Source: Spirochaetia bacterium (GTDB lineage Bacteria > Spirochaetota > Spirochaetia > DSM-2461). From it: 64,000 bases of DNA. The position numbers and the translations under genes were made by a program. The notes beneath the pieces were generated by a model. The model had not been told where the DNA came from, ran no database searches, and worked only from the letters and a program-made list of their open reading frames with translations. The stretch lies in assembly GCA_963668315.1 (NCBI GenBank), contig OY764216.1:3520001-3584000 (forward strand). Direction: 5' to 3'. The first letter of the stretch is position 1. Every line of letters begins with the position of its first letter. Shown here in pieces: positions 41,685 through 52,932 of this stretch.

Positions 41685-41754
41685 ATCAGAACGGTTACTG
41701 CTGTATGATCTGAAATCAATATTTTTTTACCCATTTATGGGACGGAGGATTAAC

Positions 41755-42905
41755 ATGAAAAAAAGAGTCTGGCACCGGGGAATTATTATGATGATGGTCA
41801 TCATAACCCTGGCTTCCTGCACAAAAGAGTCCGGGAAAAGCGCCGGTTCGGGAAGAATTTCCTATACGCCGGGAACCTATTCGGCCACTGTGGCCAGTAT
41901 GAAAGGTGATCTCACAGTTGCCGTCGAAGTGGATGACTCAAAAATCCTGTCCGTTGCTGTTACGGATATTATCGATACCCATGGAATCGCCGATAAGGCC
42001 GTCGGGACAATCCCCGGGGAAATTGTATCCCGTCAGACATTGACCGTGGATACGGTAAGCGGAGCGACGGTGACATCCATGGCCATTCTTCGCGGGGCAG
42101 AGCTTGCCCTGGAGAAATCGGGTGCCGATACGGACCTTTTAAGGACAGAGGCGAAAAAGGCGGCCAAACCTTCGGGAGACGATGAGATATACGATGTCGT
42201 CATAGTCGGATCCGGTGCTTCGGGATTATCCGCCGCGGTCAGAATCGCAGCGGAGAGCGATCTAAAGGTACTGGTACTGGAAAAACTGGCCTACTACGGA
42301 GGATCCGCCCGGGTCTGCGGGGGAGGCATCTGGGCCATGGGATCTGAAATGAACAGAAATGTGGGCATCGATTCCACGGCGGACGAATACATTTCCTTTA
42401 TGGAAAATCGTTCCGGCAAAACCCTGAACAGATCTCTCCTGACAAATATTCATGACATTTCCGGTTCAACCTTTGATTATCTGGTCAAAAACGGATTGCC
42501 CGTCGATACCCATACCCCGGGCGTGGGCCATGAAGATTCCCGACTTGCCATTGCGTGGGCCTTAAGCAATTCGGATGAACCCTATGAAACGGGCTACGGC
42601 GGAAAGGATAGGACCTATAACGTCCTTGCCGGGAAAGTCATCCTCGCCACCGGCGGTTTTACCAGAAACCGGGAATTAGTCAAAGAATTCTCCCCGGAAT
42701 ACGAAAATGTCATGCCCTTTACGGGAGCGGGCAGCACGGGGGACGGCATAGAGATGACTCGGGCTCTGGAAAACCCAATTATCGGATCCATTCCGGGGTT
42801 CAAGGTTTCGGAAAACTGCCAGGTCCTCAATGATCGGGGAGGGGTGATTCCGTTTACAGCGGAGCCCTTGCGGGTGAACATATTGTAAAAGAGATGTCAA
42901 ATAAT
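41755..42905 (+). pseudogene. Flavinylated FMN-binding/FAD-dependent reductase lipoprotein (flavocytochrome c/urocanate reductase-like) with internal deletions and a frameshift
   Basis: Lipobox LASC, DTVSGAT flavinylation motif, GSGASG, VILATGGF, STGDG. The cap domain and LYAAGE segment are missing. The family-type C-terminus VYSGALAGEHIVKE lies in another frame. The open frame ends at 42888. Confidence 0.7.
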
Positions 42906-42933
42906 CATTTCACCGATCCTTGCGATCTTCTTA

Positions 42934-42965
42934 CCGGCACAGGCTGAATCATGTTCCTGTGCCGG
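42934..42965. terminator. Hairpin between convergent genes
   Basis: CCGGCACAGG-N12-CCTGTGCCGG 10-bp stem. Confidence 0.65.
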
Positions 42966-42976
42966 CAAGGGTGTGC

Positions 42977-45900
42977 TTAATAGAATCCGGCATACATCCG
43001 GTAGACCAGATTCTTGAATAATACCTTGCCCGTATAGGGCCGGTCCGCCAGAATCGGGAACCCATACTGCAGGAACCTCCCCTGCTGTGCGATGGGAAAG
43101 TAATGGGCATAGGCCGTATCGCCGCAGAGGAGATAACCGTTCGCCGGATTCGTATCGCTGCTTCGGTATACCATGGCCCTATAGTCGTAACTGTTGACCG
43201 AGCCACCCAGCGCCGTATAGGACAATTGAGTGGTCGCCCCGTGGACCGGCGTGGTTCCGCCGCTGAATAGAGTACTGGTCAGAGGATAATTCCAGACATT
43301 CGTGCTGGCCGTCCACTGGAGCATAGTAAGATCAGCAGAGGTCGTGTACATTACATGGCCGGCTCCTATCTCCGTCGGATATTGGGTCTGGTAACTCAGT
43401 GAGCCTGAGTAATGCCAGCTGGGATTATTCTCCAGCAGCTGCAGAAAACGGGCTCCCGAGTATCCCATGGCTATGACGCCGCTTCTGTTATTTGTCGTCG
43501 AGGGAGAAAGGCCGGTGTTGTAGCTCCTGTGGGCGATATTCCGTGCGATATTGGGCGTATTGTAGGTATAGTAAGCTCCCGGAGTAATGATGACCGGATC
43601 GCCGTAGATGATATAGCGGTCATCCAGAGTGGTCCAGCTGTTCGTAATTAAGTTCTGAGGCAGCATGGTAACCGTCCAAACCGGTTCGGATCCGCTGATA
43701 TAGGAGCTGTAGGTCGTGGTCAGACTCTCGTTCTCAAAAAGGCTCTTAATCTTGCCGGCTATGGACGTATCGTCCGTATCGCTGCTGTTGTAGACCACGG
43801 TGATATCCGAACTGAACGATATGATGTAATTGCTGTAACGGTCACTCCAGCCGGCGCTGTTGTTATACATGCGTATATATACATAATACACCGTTCCTTC
43901 GGAAATGGTACCCGACACATTTCCCGTATAATAGGTAGGCACGGTGGATGTGCTGCTGCCTGTGGCAACGGCTCCTACGCTGGGATTTGAAGTGGGTGAT
44001 GTGTGAAAATAGGCATAATACGTGTTTGTTCCATATTCCGAGCCATAGGAATTATAATACAGAGTGACATAACCATTGCTGGTTTCGCCCTTGGTAGAGT
44101 TGTACAGCGCCGTATTCCCGTAATGAATAAGGTCCGTACGGGGCGAAACGGAAGAATAGGTTGTATTCCCCGCGGCATCGGCAAAGTAAACCTGAACGGC
44201 CTTGGTTCCGTAGCCTGACGAAAGTGTCCATGATCGGGAATCGGAATAGGAGTATGCCGTGAACCCTCCGGATGTTCCGTTTCGCAGATACATGGTAGTC
44301 GCGCCGGAAACACTGCTGTTCAGAGTAACCGACGTACTGCCCGTGGAGGTGGCATTACTGTTGATAGTAAAGGAACTGAATGAGGGCGGCGTTGTATCGA
44401 GAACGATAATGTCGTATATATATCCCGAGACATTTCCTGCTTCATCCCTGAATTTGACAAGGGCGTACTTTGTTTCATCGCCGGATGTCAGGGAGAATGA
44501 TTTGCCTGTGGAATAGTTTTCCCAGCTGCTCCAGGTTCCCCATCCGTACAGTGAACTGTAGTTGGCGAACTGCATCTGATCCGCTCCGGTAGCGCTGACC
44601 GTCAGAGTAACCGATGTGGATGTGGCATAGGCGGCTCCGCTGTTGATTGAGATGGCTCCGGGGACCGGCAGAGTGGTATCGATGGTTATCGTTCTTGTTC
44701 CGGCGGCAGACCAGTTGCCGGCCAGGTCACGTTCCATGACCTCCAGCGAGGCAGAAACCGTATCTCCCAAAGCCGTTGTATGGGTATAGCTTGTCGCCGT
44801 GGTTTCTTCGGACCAGGCACTCCAGCCGGAACCGTTGTTGAAACGGTACATGTACACGCCCATGCCGCCCCCGCCGGAGTTCCAGGTCAGGGTCGGAGTC
44901 GTGTCATTGGTTTCGGTTTCACTTGTGCCGGTTTGAATCATGCTGACAGTGGGACTGTTCGGTGCCGCCGTATCGATTTGGACACTGCTTGAGGCAATTT
45001 TTCCTACCCAGTCGGTACCGTTTATTCTCTCTTCTATCTGAAAAGTGGTAATCCCGTTGCTCAGGGAGGAAAGGGTTATCGTGTTGTTGGCGGTTACCGT
45101 CCAGTTCGACCCGTCCGTCGAGTACCTGTAGTAATCCGAGGCCGTATCAACTCCGGCGCCCGATTCCCAGGACCAGGTGACGCTGTTTACGTTCCGCAGA
45201 TAGTCTCCGTCGCGGATGAGGTTCGGTTCGGAAGTATAGTCGCTGTCAATCCAAATGGCATGGGAGGATTCGGCAGACCAGTTACCCGCCTCATCCCTTT
45301 CCTGGACGTAAAGGGTGTATTCATACATATCCTCAATGGAAACTCCCATGTAGGAGGTATTTCCCGTTTCCGTCTGCCAATCGAATACGACGACAGTTTC
45401 AGCTGTGTAAGCTCCGCCATTGGATTCCCAGTTCCTTGCTCTTCTGTCAAGACGGTAGCGGTAGACTCCGTTTCCGCCCCCGCCGCTTGTCCAGTTCCAC
45501 GAAGGGGTCGTGCTCGGAGTATGGGTCAGCCCGGCGATCTGGGGGACTGCTGGTGCTGTGGTATCCCATTCCAGGGTATAATAGGCGACTGTCTCGTTGC
45601 CGGCATAATCGGTAACCGTAAGGGAAAGGGTATAGGTGGCGTCCGTGTCGGCCGAAACCGTAGTGGATGATGCCGCGGGTGTTCCGAATGTGACGACTCC
45701 CGTGCCGGAAAGCTGTTCCCACAACCTGGTTTCAACCCCGGTACCCTGATCGGTGACGGTCGCACTGTTATCTATGGTGATCTGGCTGTTGACGGTAAAA
45801 AAGGCCCCGTCGTTATTGATCACGGGATAGATCGTGTCAATATTAACTGAGGCCGATCCCGTTTCCGTATGGTTCCCCGCGTTATCATAGGCTCTGACCT

Positions 45901-48223
45901 TGAGATTTTTCACTCCTTCCGACAGACCTTCCGCAGGGGCGAAACTGGCAATTTCAGTAATGATATACCCGGTCTGTCCCGTAGCGTCGGGAATTTCCCA
46001 ATCGGGAGTCTCGGCGAAACTGACCTTGTAGTAATCACTGCCGGAAACGTCGTCCCAATGCCATTCCGGCTGATTGGTGGAACTGTAGGCGGTGACCGTA
46101 ACATTCGGAGACGGACCGTTGCCTGCTGTCCCCGCCGTATTTCCCGGGGCCGTGACATCCCATACAAGGGGCACCGTTCCGAAGGCTTCATTTCCCGCGG
46201 CATCTGTCACGGTCACTTTGAGTACATATTCGCCCTCCGCATCGGCTTCTACGTCCGGCGCTTCGGCCGCGGTATCGGAAAATGTCAGAACGCCCGGACC
46301 GCTCACCTGTTCCCAGAGATAGGATGAAATGGGATTGGCATCGGTATAAGATCCTGTCTGCGTGGTTGTCTTGTTGATAATCAGCTGATCATCCAGACCA
46401 AAAACGATTCCCGGCTTCGTGGTATCGAGAATAATCGTATCAGAACCGGCCGCAGTCAGATCCACGTTATCGATCACTTCGATCTCCACCGTCTTTATTC
46501 CGTCTCCCGCCGGAAGGGTAATTGTCTGAGTCGGGATCCACTCAATTTCAGGTGCCCCACTAAGATTCCCGTCAGTGGAAATGCGCATTCTGCTGATCCC
46601 GCTGGTGACATCATTCGCATCGACAGTCAATTCAACCGATAAATCCTGATTATTTGTATATTCCGCTTCTCCGTTCAGGGATACGTTGTTGATCACCGGG
46701 GCCGTGGTATCAAGACTGATTTTCAGACGTTCCGGCTCTTCCGTTTCGTTTGAGTCCGTATCCATGAACTTATAGTAGATGTATTTAAAACCGTCCCCCG
46801 AAGGAAGGGTCCAGGGATAGGGATTACCGTTGCTTCCGTAGGGATCGCCGTTTACGTCATAATAGGGCTCCCACTGGGCATCACCTTCAAACAGGGGGAG
46901 GCTACCGTCGTTGTATCCCCAGATTTTCATTCCGTAAATATCGTTATAAGAATCACTGGCGTTTATTACCAGATTGAGGGACGTGGAATTTGTCGCCGTC
47001 GCCGTCGGATGGTCGGCACTGTAATTCTGCGTATCCAGTAGTACCGTCCCGACGGGCGGTTCATTATCAATGGCGTCACCGGTACGGAAAAACCAGCTGT
47101 ATTCCGACTCTATCGGATTTCCCGCGACATCCGTTGCGCTATCTTCCAGATAAACCATGTAATCACCGCCCTGATCCAGATCAAGGCCCGTCAGAAGAAT
47201 CGTATTGTTGGGGTAGATCTCGTTAGGATCGGCTTCTATGTAGCGAAGATCCTCACCTTCTATCCGGGTGTCGCCCTTCATCAGATAGAAATTGCCTTCC
47301 GTCTCTATCAGCCCGTCGATATCATAGGTAGAGATGGTGATACTGTTCGGATCAATCGCTTCTGAAAAGGAGAGGGATATAACCCCGGAATTGGCGGGAT
47401 AATCACTGGAATTCGCCTCGGGAGAAGTCACCGTCACAGCGGGGGCCACCTGATCATACTCAATCAGGGCCGTAGCCAGATCCGAGACATATCGGCTTTC
47501 GTTCCGCACCTGGGCCTCGAAATTGAAAGTCTCCGAGGAAACTCCGCTCAGGGGAAGGGAGACGTCAGTCAGGGACACGGCGTTATCCGTAAGCAGAGCC
47601 CATTCCGGCCACTCACCCGTGGAGAGACGGTAGCGGTACTCCAGATCACCCGTCTCACCTTCCACATTGGATGCCAGGAGATCCACGCGGACCGTATCCT
47701 GATTTGTTGCCGTCCTGCCGTAATCGATTCTGAAATCGCTGATCACCGGCAGAACAGAGGAAGGGGTGCTTTTGGTCGTGAATTCCCATATGAATTCCTC
47801 GGTAAAGTTATTGCCGTCCACATCTTTTATCATGCTGGTGACCGTAACGGAGTAGGTGGTCATGTATTTCAATTCTGTGCTGGGATTAAAATTCGCCGTA
47901 CGGTTCGATACGGAATAGGTGCCCTGAACGGCGGTGTCGTCGGACGTATCCTCCGTATTCGCCGTATTTTTAATAATCAGACTTCCGCTGTTCACACTGT
48001 CTGAATCAATACCCTTCGTAAAGGTGATATAGATGTTATCTATCCCGATATCGATATTCGCTGCGTCCGTATCGGGAAATATGGACTCAATCGACGGGGG
48101 AGTCACAATGATTTCCACTTCTTCATCGATCGTATCGAGCAGATTATTCGGACATCCCGCAGAAATTACGGCCAGGATTACCCCGTAAATAAGAATTCGG
48201 CGCCGGTTACGGTTTTTTAACAT
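42977..48223 (-). CDS. Giant (1748 aa) Ig-like/PKD-like repeat surface lipoprotein, putative adhesin
   Basis: Basic N-terminus, hydrophobic stretch and SAGC lipobox. Two Big_5-like domains (I.ITF...ID..S; KDVDGN/TDVAGN...W.F.T), recurrent DTTxP linkers and DxAGN motifs, two LWEQ.SG.G..TF repeats. Confidence 0.8.
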   Translation of the reverse strand: MLKNRNRRRILIYGVILAVISAGCPNNLLDTIDEEVEIIVTPPSIESIFPDTDAANIDIGIDNIYITFTKGIDSDSVNSGSLIIKNTANTEDTSDDTAVQGTYSVSNRTANFNPSTELKYMTTYSVTVTSMIKDVDGNNFTEEFIWEFTTKSTPSSVLPVISDFRIDYGRTATNQDTVRVDLLASNVEGETGDLEYRYRLSTGEWPEWALLTDNAVSLTDVSLPLSGVSSETFNFEAQVRNESRYVSDLATALIEYDQVAPAVTVTSPEANSSDYPANSGVISLSFSEAIDPNSITISTYDIDGLIETEGNFYLMKGDTRIEGEDLRYIEADPNEIYPNNTILLTGLDLDQGGDYMVYLEDSATDVAGNPIESEYSWFFRTGDAIDNEPPVGTVLLDTQNYSADHPTATATNSTSLNLVINASDSYNDIYGMKIWGYNDGSLPLFEGDAQWEPYYDVNGDPYGSNGNPYPWTLPSGDGFKYIYYKFMDTDSNETEEPERLKISLDTTAPVINNVSLNGEAEYTNNQDLSVELTVDANDVTSGISRMRISTDGNLSGAPEIEWIPTQTITLPAGDGIKTVEIEVIDNVDLTAAGSDTIILDTTKPGIVFGLDDQLIINKTTTQTGSYTDANPISSYLWEQVSGPGVLTFSDTAAEAPDVEADAEGEYVLKVTVTDAAGNEAFGTVPLVWDVTAPGNTAGTAGNGPSPNVTVTAYSSTNQPEWHWDDVSGSDYYKVSFAETPDWEIPDATGQTGYIITEIASFAPAEGLSEGVKNLKVRAYDNAGNHTETGSASVNIDTIYPVINNDGAFFTVNSQITIDNSATVTDQGTGVETRLWEQLSGTGVVTFGTPAASSTTVSADTDATYTLSLTVTDYAGNETVAYYTLEWDTTAPAVPQIAGLTHTPSTTPSWNWTSGGGGNGVYRYRLDRRARNWESNGGAYTAETVVVFDWQTETGNTSYMGVSIEDMYEYTLYVQERDEAGNWSAESSHAIWIDSDYTSEPNLIRDGDYLRNVNSVTWSWESGAGVDTASDYYRYSTDGSNWTVTANNTITLSSLSNGITTFQIEERINGTDWVGKIASSSVQIDTAAPNSPTVSMIQTGTSETETNDTTPTLTWNSGGGGMGVYMYRFNNGSGWSAWSEETTATSYTHTTALGDTVSASLEVMERDLAGNWSAAGTRTITIDTTLPVPGAISINSGAAYATSTSVTLTVSATGADQMQFANYSSLYGWGTWSSWENYSTGKSFSLTSGDETKYALVKFRDEAGNVSGYIYDIIVLDTTPPSFSSFTINSNATSTGSTSVTLNSSVSGATTMYLRNGTSGGFTAYSYSDSRSWTLSSGYGTKAVQVYFADAAGNTTYSSVSPRTDLIHYGNTALYNSTKGETSNGYVTLYYNSYGSEYGTNTYYAYFHTSPTSNPSVGAVATGSSTSTVPTYYTGNVSGTISEGTVYYVYIRMYNNSAGWSDRYSNYIISFSSDITVVYNSSDTDDTSIAGKIKSLFENESLTTTYSSYISGSEPVWTVTMLPQNLITNSWTTLDDRYIIYGDPVIITPGAYYTYNTPNIARNIAHRSYNTGLSPSTTNNRSGVIAMGYSGARFLQLLENNPSWHYSGSLSYQTQYPTEIGAGHVMYTTSADLTMLQWTASTNVWNYPLTSTLFSGGTTPVHGATTQLSYTALGGSVNSYDYRAMVYRSSDTNPANGYLLCGDTAYAHYFPIAQQGRFLQYGFPILADRPYTGKVLFKNLVYRMYAGFY

Positions 48224-48237
48224 CTCCTCTCCCTCCC

Positions 48238-50325
48238 TTACTCTTCAGACCAGAATATGATATCCCTGTCGTCAGCCGCGGCAGCCCTGCCTTGATAGTT
48301 GGATTCATTGCTCATATAGGCGTATTTCACCGCGCGTTCGGGATCAATATCCTTAAGCCTGAAGTAGGATTCCTCCGCCTGTTCGAAATTTTCCAGCTCA
48401 TACTGGGCCCGGGCTATGGAAGCGATGACCAGAGAGTTCTCCGGACTGATCTCTTCGGCTCTCTTATACCAGCTGAGGGCATTCCGGATATCCTCATTAA
48501 GTGAGTAGAGATTCCCCATATTTATCAGGGAAGAAATAAAACGTGAATCCAGCTGTATAGCCCGGTTGAACTGGTTTCTTGCCTCATCATATTTCCCGAA
48601 ACGGGCATACAAAACACCGAAGCTGTTCCTTATCCGGGCATTGTCGCCTCTGGACGATATCAACTCCTGATAGTCCTGTACTTTGGGCTGAATCTCCCGG
48701 TCGATGAAAATTGCCAGATTCTCCTCATAACTTTCAATGATCATCTCCCTTTCGGGAAAAACCAAGGAAAGAGCCGCCCCCGGTATGGCCACCGGTTCAT
48801 AGGTCTGCCAGGCATCATGAATCGGATAGATGGCGGCGCTGTTGTGTATGGTATTATTACGCCACTCCTTGGCTCCGATTTTCCAGGATTTGAGAAACCC
48901 CTCCGGTATCATGGTGATTTCCACAGGAACCCAGGTGTTGCCGTCCAGAAAAAGAAAATCCTCCGTATTGGAAAAAAGACTCTTTGCCTGGTCTTCGCTC
49001 ATATCCAGAGAGAACGCCATATAAATATGTCCGGGAATGGTAATAAAGGCCGTAGAAATTCCTACGGATTCAAGAAGGGACGAGTAAAGAATGGAAAGAT
49101 CATCACAATCTCCCGCGCGATAGGTCAGAGTCTGGGCCGGGAACTGCAGATAATCGATAAAGAGAGAATTTTTTATGGCTTCCACATAGGAGGACTGGGG
49201 ATCCACCACGTAATTCATGCCGTAAAGACGGAGTGTTTCATATATTCCCATGGCAATCCGGAAGTTCAGATTGATGGAATTGGTTCCCTGCTCGCGGATA
49301 ATTCCGGCGGTATTTTTGGCAAAAAGCAGAACCGTTGAGTCCTTGGCGTTCACAAAGGAAGCCGCCTTGCGGTCGTCATCCCACATCATGGAGTTGCGGT
49401 CATAGATTCTCAGGGTATAGGGGGTGGTGGATGTGAATCGTTCTCCCAGGTAGGTATATTCGGTTATGATGCTGGCGGATACCTTGGTGCTTTCGGTCAG
49501 CTGCATCACACTGTTGGTAAAGAGGGCTTTCAGTTCAATTTCCACGCTCTCTCCGTGTTTTAAACTGGAAATCTCGGCGCTCAGTTTCGGCTCTTCCATA
49601 TACTGATTCACGTTGAAATAGACCTTAATATCCGAAATGGAGCTGTTCTCGCCGTTCGTGACGGAGACTTTTCCCACGGCGTTATTATCATAGAAGCCGT
49701 AGAATACGGGGAAAACCGGATCGAACTGAATATCCTCGACCTTAATCCTGCTCCTGTTCTTTTTCGTATTCAGGTGAAACACCGTCCCCAGGGTTATTCG
49801 CGCTCCCTGGTACAGATCGGTATAGGATGAAGCGGCCGTATCATAACCGAGGTAATAGCGGTATCCGCCCCCGGCGGAGAGGGTAAATCCCGGGGTGAAA
49901 TCCCAGGAGAGATAAACATTGCCCCCCCCGTAGGGGTTCGATCCGCCGTCGGCGTCGGGGTACATCCCCAGATACCAGCCCACTTCTCCTCCGGCCGAGA
50001 GGCTCAGGGCATTTCCCATGCGAAGGCTCAAGCCTCCCTCAAACCCGGCAGAGAGAATAGACAGGTTTTCCGCCTGGGTCGGTAATATACTGTACCCTAA
50101 ATTCCCGCCATAATAGAAACTGGTAAAATCCGGGGGAGTGAAGTGCAGACTAAAAGTGGCCGAACCACCGGGGGTATAGAGGGAATCCTCATGGAAAACG
50201 GCGCTGTTTTCTCCAAGGGGAAGTTCAAAGGCCGGTCTCACAATAAGGCTGGCATTCTCCATCTGTCCGAATACCGCTGTTGCTGTGACGAGAAATATTA
50301 TAATAACAAGGATTATTTTTCGCAC
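48238..50325 (-). CDS. Secreted protein: putative outer-membrane beta-barrel + Ig-like + transglutaminase-like (GDCDD/GH) + TPR domains
   Basis: Signal peptide and Gly/aromatic alternating strands (aa ~25-185). GDCDDLSILYSSLLESVG..PGHIY..WVPVE. C-terminal TPRs (NSFGVLYARFG, INMGNLY). GTG start with GGGAGG RBS. Confidence 0.75.
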   Translation of the reverse strand: MRKIILVIIIFLVTATAVFGQMENASLIVRPAFELPLGENSAVFHEDSLYTPGGSATFSLHFTPPDFTSFYYGGNLGYSILPTQAENLSILSAGFEGGLSLRMGNALSLSAGGEVGWYLGMYPDADGGSNPYGGGNVYLSWDFTPGFTLSAGGGYRYYLGYDTAASSYTDLYQGARITLGTVFHLNTKKNRSRIKVEDIQFDPVFPVFYGFYDNNAVGKVSVTNGENSSISDIKVYFNVNQYMEEPKLSAEISSLKHGESVEIELKALFTNSVMQLTESTKVSASIITEYTYLGERFTSTTPYTLRIYDRNSMMWDDDRKAASFVNAKDSTVLLFAKNTAGIIREQGTNSINLNFRIAMGIYETLRLYGMNYVVDPQSSYVEAIKNSLFIDYLQFPAQTLTYRAGDCDDLSILYSSLLESVGISTAFITIPGHIYMAFSLDMSEDQAKSLFSNTEDFLFLDGNTWVPVEITMIPEGFLKSWKIGAKEWRNNTIHNSAAIYPIHDAWQTYEPVAIPGAALSLVFPEREMIIESYEENLAIFIDREIQPKVQDYQELISSRGDNARIRNSFGVLYARFGKYDEARNQFNRAIQLDSRFISSLINMGNLYSLNEDIRNALSWYKRAEEISPENSLVIASIARAQYELENFEQAEESYFRLKDIDPERAVKYAYMSNESNYQGRAAAADDRDIIFWSEE

Positions 50326-50838
50326 CTGAATCCTCCCATATACTGTTCCAGGAAAAACTTTAACAGATAATTGAAGCTACTCTTAATGCCGATCAGATAA
50401 AATGAATAATTCTATCGTTCTTATAATTTGTTAAATCCTAATGCTTTGTCATTTTAATTATAAGTGAGAGATCCACGGCTTTCAAGGATTCTCCTGCAGA
50501 TTACATTACTATTTCACTAGTATATAATTTCTCCTGGTAAGATCAGGCTGATTCTTCTCCTGCTGCGGGTCTAAAGGGGCCATAGCCGTTTCATACCCTT
50601 TGTTTTTCTACCAAAGGGTGATGTGCCGAGAGGAGCCTTTTTTAAAAACCGACCGCCAACATGGACGTTATCTCTTTACATTAGACACTGTCTATTGTAA
50701 AATGAATAGGAGTTTCTATACTGTTATTTTATGAATTCCGATTCAAAAACCCGAAGAAATCCAGAGAGAATTAACGCCTCACTCGGCGGCTCATTTTGGG
50801 AAATGCAGGTCATAATCGGTATTCATCAGGAGTTAAAA

Positions 50839-52932
50839 ATGAAATCAAAAGGTCTGGCGTTCCGTCTCGTTTTGTCGATGGGAATACTCGTCATGGTTAT
50901 CCTCGGTGCCGTCATCGTGTTCGTAGGAGTCAGGTTAAGATCCGACCTTTCAAAGGTCATGGAAAATGACTATGAATCCATCGTTGAGGCGCGGGCCGCC
51001 GAGGTGGGGGAAATTATCGCCGGTCACTGGGATCAACTGGTCCTGCTTTCCTCCCTTGAAGACCTGACTGTCGGAGATCTGGAGAGGGCGAAAGCTGAAA
51101 TAGGGCCGATGCGTCGAACGGGCCTCGTCAAGGATATTATCTCGATTTCGGTTTTCGATGATACCGGAAAAGTAAAGCTTTCCAACGGAGGGTTCGGGGA
51201 CATCAGCGACCGGGACTACTTCAGAGCCATTTTCAATGAAGGACGCGACCGCTTTATAAGCCAAGTGCTTATCCCTCAAACCTTCACCAAACCTACGGTG
51301 ATGTTCGCCCTGGCCGTCCCTCAGCAGAACGGGAAGAGATTCGCCATCGTGATGCAGATATCCCTCGACTATCTTTCCGAAATCGTGAAGAGCATGACTC
51401 TTCTGGAAGGTTCCTACGGATGGATTACCGATGAGAATACCACGGTCATCGCCCATCCCTCGACCGATCTGATCATGAACTATAATCTGGCGGCTGTAAA
51501 GGAAGAGGGGGAGTCGGGTAATTCGGTTCGAGCCCTGGCCAGGAAATTCCAGTCGGAGGATCAAGGCATAGGGAACTATAAAAATGAGTCCGGCAGGGAC
51601 ATGACCGTGTGTTTCGCGACTATTCCGAATTCGCCCGACTGGAAAATAGCCATCGACACGCCCACCGTAGCTTTCTATGCCGCCAGCAACCAGCTGATGG
51701 AAACACTGCTGATTGTCTTCGCCATTGCCATGACTGTGACAATCTGCTTGGCAATCGTTCTTGCCCGTTCCATCACAAAGCCCGTCAAGCAGGTAGCGTC
51801 GGAGTTCAGAAACCTCGCCGAAGGAGACGCCGACCTGTCCCGATCATTGAAAATCAAAGCAAAGGATGAGGTCGGAGATCTTGTGGAAGACTTCAACCGT
51901 TTCATAGAAAACCTGCGATCCATGATCGTCAACCTGAAGGGGACCCAGACATCCCTCGGGGGAATAGTAGAGGAACTTCGGTCCAGTGTCTTGGGCAGTG
52001 TAAGCGCGGTTTCCCAGATAGACCAGCGCTCAGACCGGATGATGACCCTGGCTCAGGAGCAGGGTGACGGCGTGACACAATCCTCCAGCGCCGTAGAAGA
52101 GGTCGCCAGGAATATTGAAAACCTTGATGCACTGATCCAGAATCAGGCGGCGGCGATAACGCAGGCATCAGCATCGATTGAAGAGATGGTGGGGAATACG
52201 CTATCCGTCTCCAAATCCATGGGCATTATTGCCTCAAACTTCCACGAGATCAACGTGGCGACGGAAAAGGGCGTAGCCCTTCAGGAGCAGGCCGGCATAC
52301 AGGTCAAAATCATATCGGACCTGTCCAACACATTGATTGAAGCGAACGAAGTAATATCCGGTATCGCAGCCCAGACAAACCTCCTGGCCATGAATGCCGC
52401 CATTGAAGCGGCTCATGCGGGCGCTGCGGGAAAAGGATTTTCCGTAGTGGCAGATGAAATACGCCGGCTTGCTGAGACTTCCACGGTCCAGTCATCATCC
52501 ATAGGTAAGGACCTTATGAAAGTGCAGGATGGGATCTCGACTGTCGTGACGAATACCGGAGCCACGGGAGAGGCCTTTACCCTTCTGGCACAGCTCATAC
52601 ACGCCACAGGACGCCTTGTAAAAGAAGTAGGATCGGCTGTGGATGAACAGAGTGAGGGCTCGAATCAGGTATTGGAAGCCCTGAAAACCATGAATGAAAT
52701 CAGTGCCGAGGTCAGAGGCGGGTCAGCGGAAATGAGCAGCGGAAACAGGATGATTCTGGGTTCCGTATCCCGCATCATGGTAAGCGCCAGGGAAATTGAA
52801 ACCAGCACCAGAGAAGTCAGCCAGGGTGTGAGGGGTGTACAGGAGAGCTTCGGAACCATAGAGAACCTGAGCGGTAAGACCGAAGAGCTGATAACTCATA
52901 TGGAAGAGGCGATAGGCCGGTTCAAAGCTTAA
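50839..52932 (+). CDS. Methyl-accepting chemotaxis protein
   Basis: Two TMs, Cache, HAMP, QTNLLAMNAAIEAAHAGAAGKGFSVVADEIRRLAE. ATG 50839 with AGGAG RBS. Confidence 0.93.
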   Translation: MKSKGLAFRLVLSMGILVMVILGAVIVFVGVRLRSDLSKVMENDYESIVEARAAEVGEIIAGHWDQLVLLSSLEDLTVGDLERAKAEIGPMRRTGLVKDIISISVFDDTGKVKLSNGGFGDISDRDYFRAIFNEGRDRFISQVLIPQTFTKPTVMFALAVPQQNGKRFAIVMQISLDYLSEIVKSMTLLEGSYGWITDENTTVIAHPSTDLIMNYNLAAVKEEGESGNSVRALARKFQSEDQGIGNYKNESGRDMTVCFATIPNSPDWKIAIDTPTVAFYAASNQLMETLLIVFAIAMTVTICLAIVLARSITKPVKQVASEFRNLAEGDADLSRSLKIKAKDEVGDLVEDFNRFIENLRSMIVNLKGTQTSLGGIVEELRSSVLGSVSAVSQIDQRSDRMMTLAQEQGDGVTQSSSAVEEVARNIENLDALIQNQAAAITQASASIEEMVGNTLSVSKSMGIIASNFHEINVATEKGVALQEQAGIQVKIISDLSNTLIEANEVISGIAAQTNLLAMNAAIEAAHAGAAGKGFSVVADEIRRLAETSTVQSSSIGKDLMKVQDGISTVVTNTGATGEAFTLLAQLIHATGRLVKEVGSAVDEQSEGSNQVLEALKTMNEISAEVRGGSAEMSSGNRMILGSVSRIMVSAREIETSTREVSQGVRGVQESFGTIENLSGKTEELITHMEEAIGRFKA

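Follow-up and report, generated by a model that had tools for sequence, protein, structure and literature searches.

A predicted outer-membrane barrel enzyme encoded with a helix-tagged Ig-repeat lipoprotein in spirochaetes

Analysis of a 64,000-nucleotide (nt) stretch of a Spirochaetia bacterium genome (GenBank assembly GCA_963668315.1, contig OY764216.1, positions 3,520,001 to 3,584,000; the window hereafter) revealed two minus-strand genes separated by 14 nt (Table 1). The upstream gene encodes a 695-amino-acid (aa) protein in which a predicted outer-membrane barrel is followed by an immunoglobulin (Ig)-like domain, a transglutaminase-like catalytic domain, and tetratricopeptide repeats (TPRs). 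The downstream gene encodes a 1748-aa Ig-repeat lipoprotein. The host genome comprises 5.62 Mb on one contig, and the nearest labelled relatives come nearly all from Spirochaetota assemblies. The sequence of the gap suggests that the two genes are translationally coupled. A preliminary description of this DNA had reported the co-oriented pair with its 14-nt spacing, a bounding hairpin and an AT-rich upstream region, a signal peptide, barrel strands, a GDCDD...His...Glu triad and TPRs in the first product, and a lipidated Ig/PKD-repeat protein as the second. Open reading frame (ORF) calls, folding, base composition, structural modelling, and domain matches recovered each of these features.

Table 1. 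Features of the two-gene locus and its flanks, in window coordinates
Feature	Position	Strand	Basis
Gene for the 695-aa barrel/Ig/transglutaminase-like/TPR protein	48238..50325	-	GTG start, ORF call; model pLDDT 88.4
Sec signal peptide, residues 1-20	50266..50325	-	Sequence; model helix 2-20; cleavage presumed
8-stranded OmpA/NspA-type outer-membrane barrel (predicted), residues 25-184	49774..50253	-	Model, fold match, strand pattern
Ig-like beta sandwich, residues 194-307	49405..49746	-	Model, fold search
Transglutaminase-like catalytic domain, residues 312-506	48808..49392	-	Fold search and LapG sequence alignment
GDCDD motif, Cys407 and flanking acids, aligned to LapG GDCED	49099..49113	-	Homologue alignments
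His433, triad	49027..49029	-	Invariant 103/103; lost in 13/13 Cys-less paralogues
Glu469, third triad residue (Asp in LapG)	48919..48921	-	Homologue alignments
TPR repeats, residues 563-666	48328..48639	-	Model and domain matches
C-terminal tail, Arg680-Ala681 and Trp692, motif common to FecR-like/TPR neighbours of other homologues	48241..48291	-	Alignments
14-nt purine-rich intergenic gap, GGAG ribosome-binding-like	48224..48237	-	Sequence
Gene for the 1748-aa Ig-repeat lipoprotein	42977..48223	-	ATG start, ORF call and domain matches
Lipoprotein signal peptide and lipobox ISAG-C24	48152..48223	-	Sequence; lipidation presumed
Amphipathic helix tag just past the lipid cysteine, hydrophobic at +5, +6, +9, +13	48101..48154	-	Partner alignment
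First Big_5 Ig domain, immediately after the tag	47774..48103	-	Domain match
Distal Ser/Thr/Tyr-rich region (fn3-like, lead only)	42980..44116	-	Sequence, Atlas search
Stable hairpin without a U tract, lying between convergent genes	42930..42969	-	Folding versus shuffles
Sigma-70-like promoter-like site, 11/12 match, in the AT-rich gap	50457..50485	-	Promoter scan

All four copies of the enzyme gene in this genome directly precede a gene for a lipoprotein of 856-1748 aa. The three other pairs lie at G000:C1:5135652-5140330, 1617942-1622940, and 512699-519800, and their cargoes carry BspA leucine-rich repeat, LVIVD, and Big_13 domains. The enzyme at 512699-519800 is a dead copy without Cys, His, Glu, and the tail Arg, and it retains a 1685-aa lipoprotein. 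Pairing was then scored on 190 distinct homologues from 182 loci. An adjacent co-oriented lipoprotein gene accompanied 85 of the 105 scorable active forms with an 8-stranded barrel (10 further barrel forms ended at contig edges) and 4 of 46 other forms, one of the four being a truncated barrel form. Among 300 random genes of this genome, 33 satisfied the same neighbour rule, and 6 were tag-positive. The pairing is far above chance, and the enrichment of homologues beside large lipoproteins that the preliminary description anticipated was found. The association was strongest near the clade of the window; in the top-scoring loci, which come from close relatives, 60 of 62 had a lipoprotein partner. 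In 80 held-out metagenome loci, some of which were also in the first set, 50 of 55 barrel forms had a partner, compared with 2 of 9 others (one again truncated). The Cys codon of the partner lies at most 120 nt from the enzyme stop codon in 74 of 81 cases, and tandem enzyme-cargo pairs occur in loci L001, L003, and L135. Of the 401 genomes sampled from the phylum, 54 contained the catalytic core, and the family spans 2663 protein clusters at 50% identity; for 10 homologues, the cluster records found were all metagenome-assembled.

The lipoprotein partners (88 entries, 87 distinct) share a short amphipathic helix next to the lipid anchor. Positions +5, +6, +9, and +13 of this tag were hydrophobic in 83-90% of 59 partners but in 27-34% of 226 lipoprotein-like ORFs of this genome, and the helix begins four residues past the Cys in 59/88 partners. 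The domain after the tag falls into 28 unrelated clusters, with the tag kept throughout. Among 47 cargoes scanned, the domains included Big_5, InlB-like, HYDIN-like Ig, RCC1, FG-GAP, beta-helix, LVIVD, cadherin-like, LamG, Lcl, Kelch, and BspA, types that are usual in surface and secreted proteins. The 1748-aa partner matched two Big_5 stretches, a K319L-like PKD domain, Big_13, and Big_3_2; an Atlas search with its tip returned leads that were unnamed or DUF4960/fn3 only. When residues 21-695 of the barrel protein were co-folded with the 34-residue tag, the score was 0.57 (0.04, 0.58, and 0.57 in the three runs), compared with 0.00 for the best control. Of 157 solved complexes, 116 reached the mark used, as did 2 of 215 mismatches; just 18 of those complexes, but both mismatches, reached it with a score no higher than 0.60. 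Agreement between runs was at least 0% of contacts, with a partner predicted local distance difference test (pLDDT) value of at least 32. This prediction hints weakly that the tag may bind the barrel protein.

An AlphaFold2 model of the 695-aa protein was built with 103 sequences (pLDDT, 88.4; predicted template modelling score, 0.73). Searches with the whole model in Foldseek and with a profile against Protein Data Bank (PDB) sequences were swamped by TPR matches, and the domains were therefore searched separately. As the preliminary description had supposed, the N-terminal region models as a barrel, with eight antiparallel amphipathic strands after the signal peptide, as in OmpA/NspA-type barrels. 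Its fold matched NspA (Z 18.8; root mean square deviation [rmsd], 2.3; 150 residues aligned) and, among others, OmpA and PagL (both Z 16.4). The strands have alternating faces, with hydrophobic fractions of 0.73-0.83 versus 0.15-0.31; insertions among homologues fall in barrel loops 1, 3, and 4, and the homologues P0098, P0162, P0261, and P0266 matched PF13505. Gly accounts for 28% of the lumen-facing positions, and a Gly-lined lumen is regarded as a lead only. Comparison of barrel conservation between partner-bearing and partner-less forms revealed modest, phylogeny-confounded differences (lumen side-chain volume, 113 versus 119). Beyond the catalytic domain, the model contains a long helix, the TPRs, and a low-confidence tail; TPR family profiles matched residues 552-667. 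The catalytic core modelled alone (pLDDT, 93.1) matched 3kd4 (Z 10.8), PNGase (Z 9.4), LapG 4fgo (Z 8.9), and TglA (Z 8.6). These matches to the predicted structure identify the fold and not the reaction.

In the usual topology of an 8-stranded barrel, the N- and C-terminal ends are both periplasmic, and the catalytic core and the TPRs are predicted to lie in the periplasm. Two of the seven long homologues listed (P0205 and P0265) run past the tail motif through a long linker into a hydrophobic helix with a Lys-rich end, which would likewise place the C-terminal part in the periplasm. A Pro/Glu/Ala-rich linker beyond the tail was observed in the long forms P0205, P0265, P0128, P0139, P0147, and P0202, whose ends are of two types, either the hydrophobic helix with the Lys-rich end or a small unnamed beta domain. 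Forms of the former type could span the periplasm. Coupling analysis of 456 sequences (effective number, 350) revealed no clear contact between the core and the TPRs.

Cys407, His433, and Glu469 were all invariant in 103/103 close homologues. All 13 full homologues without the Cys also lack the His and the Glu but retain Gly405, Asp409, Pro396, and Gln394; 11 of the 13 belong to one clade, which leaves about three loss events. The couplings S415-M436, S439-T464, F438-V466, and D375-D408 place the Cys helix next to the His strand, which in turn lies beside the Glu strand. Because of this joint loss and the strand couplings, the sequence comparison indicates that the three residues act as one triad, as the preliminary description had proposed. 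The flanking acids are nearly constant in 171 homologues (D406 in 169, D408 in 168, and D391 in 171), and D375 and D408 are coupled; their mapping to a putative calcium site is based on the DvhG paper and the LapG alignment. LapG was the best PDB sequence match of the catalytic part (4u65_E, E 0.014; aligned over DY..P..L..AGDC), and its fold match to the core (rmsd 3.3, 140 residues aligned) stands among other members of the fold with Z 8.6-10.8. The likeness to LapG noted earlier is real but distant. The NF045674 (BTLCP) profile gave 13.8 bits against a cut-off of 320, below the family threshold; PF06035 had no match in this genome, whereas a Caulobacter positive control did match; and PF01841 (Transglut_core) matched weakly (E 0.008, 16.8 bits against a cut-off of 23).

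Active enzymes end in [Arg/Lys]-Ala, a Trp 10-15 residues later, and then acidic residues. Of 100 active barrel forms, 89 carry this tail motif, as do 28 of the 31 active forms that have TPRs but no such barrel; it was found in 0/12 dead forms and 0/14 forms with a larger barrel (null, 393/3460). In the held-out set it was present in 70 of 72. The Trp is also kept inside the long forms. The codons of the tail Trp-Glu-Glu-stop double as the ATG and ribosome-binding bases of the next gene. Across the family, the tagged lipoprotein partner follows the 8-stranded barrel, and the Arg...Trp motif follows the active site.

A third family of proteins carries the same motif. Downstream of partner-less homologues, genes were found for secreted proteins with half a FecR-like domain, the motif G-V-R-[G/A], a Trp, and often TPRs. 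Their likeness to FecR-like proteins covers the N-terminal half, as far as G[VI]RG, and none of the 10 scanned matched Pfam FecR. When 1.93 Mb of loci were searched with a profile made from 10 of them, 34 ORFs were identified and 30 of these were of the Arg-motif type, compared with one ORF of that type in the 5.62-Mb genome; five more were found in the held-out loci. Among 25 aligned members, only one Gly, the Val-Arg pair, and the Trp reach 90%. The Trp lies about 11 residues past the Arg, a spacing that overlaps that of the enzyme tail. Third-family neighbours also lay within the fetched loci of 6 of the 14 tail-less larger-barrel enzymes. The third family co-occurs with the enzyme. Across the 401 genomes, near-full-length matches among the best 150 matches listed came from 39 genomes, and the enzyme was present in 36 of these (all counts by hand). 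Without the 21 genomes that had contributed to the profile, the enzyme was present in 15 of 18 genomes with such a match among the matches listed, compared with a base of 33/380; 8 of those 15 are of one family. FecR cleaves itself at Gly181-Thr182 (PMC12036975). The third-family proteins differ in having no cleaving Thr and in carrying instead a linker, the Trp, and often TPRs, whereas six other FecR-like ORFs of this genome retain Gly-Thr. The sole Arg-motif FecR-like/TPR protein of this genome (271 aa; G000:C1:1689032-1689847 [L291:3033-3848, minus strand]) is unlinked to the four enzyme genes. In locus L149, a 132-aa ORF after a dead paralogue encodes a small secreted protein with an Arg-Ala-Ser-Asp end like that of the enzyme tail.

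Among the closest known systems are LapG-LapA-LapD and DvhG-DvhA-DvhD (BTLCP, Peptidase C93). These share with the spirochaete module a transglutaminase-like Cys enzyme, predicted to be likewise periplasmic in the spirochaetes, with acids flanking the Cys (PMC13090378), a giant Ig-repeat partner with an N-terminal amphipathic helix, and a Trp-bearing element tied to the enzyme (PMC13090378, PMC4359373). The triad of LapG and DvhG is Cys-His-Asp, LapG cuts [T/A/P]AAG after a targeting helix, and a single LapG serves several adhesins (PMC13090378). The spirochaete enzyme has instead a Cys-His-Glu triad and adds the outer-membrane barrel anchor, the Ig domain, the TPRs, and the tail; its partners are Sec lipoproteins rather than type I secretion substrates, are without the [T/A/P]AAG site, and have one enzyme gene per cargo. 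No cyclic di-GMP receptor was recognised in the window locus, and no type I secretion genes were recognised by eye among the ORFs at 36-58 kb (TolC-like genes occur elsewhere in the genome). PF16448, for the LapD-type receptor, had no match in this genome, nor in any control genome. Although the module may function in the manner of the Lap system, it does not belong to it: the triad, the profile score, the anchor, the cargo route, and the cut site all fail.

Barrels of the OmpA/NspA/PagL type have the same fold, and OmpA likewise has C-terminal periplasmic domains. In place of a peptidoglycan-binding domain, the periplasmic part of the spirochaete protein would consist of an enzyme and TPRs, and the gene is coupled to that of a tagged lipoprotein. 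Slam (type XI secretion) is likewise a barrel-and-TPR outer-membrane protein encoded beside its own surface lipoprotein. Slam has N-terminal TPRs, a larger C-terminal barrel, and no known catalytic domain, whereas in the spirochaete protein the barrel is N-terminal and 8-stranded, the TPRs are C-terminal, and TPR_Slam matched with just E 0.08. The Ig and transglutaminase-like stretch matched the N-terminal region of Prometheus ProA (NF058533, profile positions 10-273, E 6e-11), as did the three paralogues. A ProA or defence reading was dropped at 40.5 bits against a cut-off of 1500, with positions 10-273 of 1903 covered, leaving a shared domain only, and PADLOC returned no defence-system match. 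The component folds are known, and the system itself fails membership of every known kind tested. A literature search in full text, with coverage that excluded most subscription papers and all supplements, found no description of the module. It is a real and widespread envelope module that is apparently undescribed.

The reading that fits best, which we favour only tentatively, is that the barrel protein is a holder for the tagged surface lipoprotein and that its enzyme makes a separate cut at the Arg motif. The 8-stranded barrel would anchor the protein in the outer membrane, with the Cys-enzyme core and the TPRs in the periplasm. Through the helix beside the lipid anchor, the protein would bind its co-translated lipoprotein 1:1 and hold or display the Ig-stalk lipoprotein at the outer membrane; the cargo would be surface exposed, and a part of the barrel protein would grip the tag. 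The Cys-His-Glu site would cut after the Arg of the Arg-Ala/Gly motif, in the protein's own tail or in a partner FecR-like/TPR protein, and would not cut the lipoprotein. Catalysis would probably be calcium dependent, by analogy with LapG, and the cut might be a maturation or anchoring step. We favour this holder because there is one enzyme gene per cargo, the pairs are tightly coupled, a dead copy is kept with its cargo, and the cargo has no cut site. The preliminary description had proposed that the enzyme processes, cross-links, or exposes the lipoprotein. Holding or exposing fits best, since every cargo gene is translationally coupled to an enzyme gene of its own and the dead copy keeps its lipoprotein, whereas release and cross-linking lost ground.

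Several observations weigh against the holder model. A periplasmic core cannot reach a tag in the outer leaflet, and an 8-stranded barrel is not known to act as a protein channel. The co-fold pass is weak, one of the three runs having scored 0.04, and the coupling analysis did not place the tail, which is of low confidence in the structural model. The next-gene signals in the Trp-Glu-Glu-stop codons may add to the conservation of the tail. In an even phylum-wide sample, just 22 of 40 barrel forms had an adjacent lipoprotein. The counts overstate independence, the barrel-less forms being mostly one family and the dead forms largely one clade; in the core tree, barrel-less forms without a tagged partner are nested in several lineages within the barrel-plus-partner clade. 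The model is drawn from sequence and predicted structure. By analogy with the docking of LapD on LapG through a Trp (PMC4359373), the Arg...Trp motif may be an inhibitor and not a substrate.

That inhibitor role belongs to an alternative that we consider rather unlikely, namely, LapG-like regulated shedding, in which the enzyme cuts just past the tag, separating the Ig stalk from the lipid anchor. The tag would be the equivalent of the LapG targeting helix, and the Arg...Trp motif, in the protein's own tail or in a neighbour, would be a LapD-like Trp-anchored brake. LapG is the best PDB sequence match and also a fold match, LapG substrates have a helix before the cut site with hydrophobic residues four apart (PMC13090378), LapD docks by a Trp (PMC4359373), and a weak preference for small residues exists 11-13 residues past the helix start (Ala in 27/88). 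Release is nevertheless weakened because just one of the 88 partners contains the LapG-type site [T/A/P]AAG. Ala-Ala shows no enrichment (16/88 versus 46/226 control ORFs). In the 1748-aa cargo, Ile stands at the position of the Ala found in others, the first Ig domain begins at residue 41, and the sole TAAG (residue 590) is not conserved across 16 aligned long partners. The one enzyme gene per cargo, the dead copy that retains its cargo, and the Glu as third triad residue also speak against shedding. If shedding were true, the module would be a variant of the Lap system.

The tail, triad, and 1:1 coupling evidence that serves the holder model would serve equally for a sortase-like ligase, which seems improbable. 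Here the enzyme would cut after the tail Arg, form an acyl-enzyme on Cys407, and transfer it to an amine of the lipoprotein or of peptidoglycan, so that the barrel becomes covalently joined to cargo or cell wall. The 1:1 rule would then be explained outright, P0205 and P0265 (2 of the 7 long homologues listed) end like sorting signals, and acyl transfer is common in the fold, transglutaminases being among the matches. A full Lnt is present in this genome (288 bits against a cut-off of 132.9), and the lipoprotein N-terminus is therefore probably blocked; Lys is absent from the first 21 residues of 31 of the 88 tags, and the tail is also retained in barrel-less forms without a lipoprotein neighbour. 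Equally improbable is a diderm outer-membrane system of the sortase type with Arg-Ala/Gly...Trp as its sorting motif. The motif would be read and cut in the tail of the barrel enzyme or in a secreted FecR-derived partner, the product would be ligated to the tagged lipoprotein or to peptidoglycan, and each interchangeable adhesin would thus be fixed covalently by a barrel dedicated to it. Very unlikely is a tailoring of the lipid anchor, in which the tag positions the lipid Cys for N-acyl transfer or removal while the barrel holds the acyl chain. The constant Cys-helix distance (offset 4 in 59/88), the Gly content of the lumen, and the match to PagL among other barrels are consistent with it, and the papain-like Cys enzyme LnsA N-acylates lipoproteins (PMC7387801). 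LnsA, however, is of the NlpC/P60 type, none of which is among the fold matches listed for the core, Lnt is already present, and the Arg motif and the one enzyme gene per cargo would be left unexplained. Least probable, and to be given little weight, is that the enzyme is a Gln-Lys cross-linking transglutaminase or that the genes are paired without a physical link. Transglutaminases and TglA are among the fold matches, and Transglut_core matched, although under its cut-off. Cross-linking lost ground because Gln near the anchor is not in excess (30/88 partners versus 92/226 control ORFs), and a pairing without a physical link is opposed by coupling and tag far above control.

How spirochaetes place and hold lipoproteins at their outer surface is an open question (PMC11784454). 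Under the holder model, environmental spirochaetes would have a modular answer that combines interchangeable cargo with a tag of 15 residues and a dedicated barrel protein, and the Arg...Trp motif, whether in cis or in trans, would be a specific candidate substrate for a distant LapG relative. Three features go beyond the preliminary description: the helix tag, the Arg...Trp tail, and the third FecR-like/TPR family.

The flanks of the pair were also analysed. The hairpin downstream of the lipoprotein gene has an inner 14-bp stem and a z score of -6.4, and 0/200 shuffles were equally stable; it was not among the calls of a terminator scan. The gap upstream of the enzyme gene is AT-rich, with a GC content of 36.5% compared with 49-52% inside both genes, and promoter-like sites in the region were not above chance (10 found, 10.2 expected). 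On the plus strand, window positions 41737-42888 encode a lipoprotein with FMN-binding and FAD_binding_2 domains that looks shortened, as it covers only profile positions 1-105 of 414. Positions 50731-52932 (plus strand) encode a divergent methyl-accepting chemotaxis protein (dCache, HAMP, and MCP signal domains) that has the AT-rich gap in common with the enzyme gene.

Several variants of the enzyme were observed among the homologues. Dead and then active barrel paralogues stand in tandem in loci L126, L133, L134, L137, L139, L140, L141, L143, L144, L149, and L150. In five tandem loci, the active copy is without TPRs and the dead copy has them, which suggests that the two paralogues form a heterodimer. 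In L157, L173, L175, L177-L179, L182-L185, L188, L192, L198, L200, and L205, the core is fused to a larger UPF0164/FadL-like barrel, a class without the tail and without a tagged lipoprotein, which we take to be PorV-like from a motif (Pfam: UPF0164 in 2/15, TraF_2 in 1/15). Some barrel-less enzymes have a separate, divergently oriented PF13568 barrel gene just upstream (L034:8694-9407, L037:8802-9515, and L046:1952-2641).

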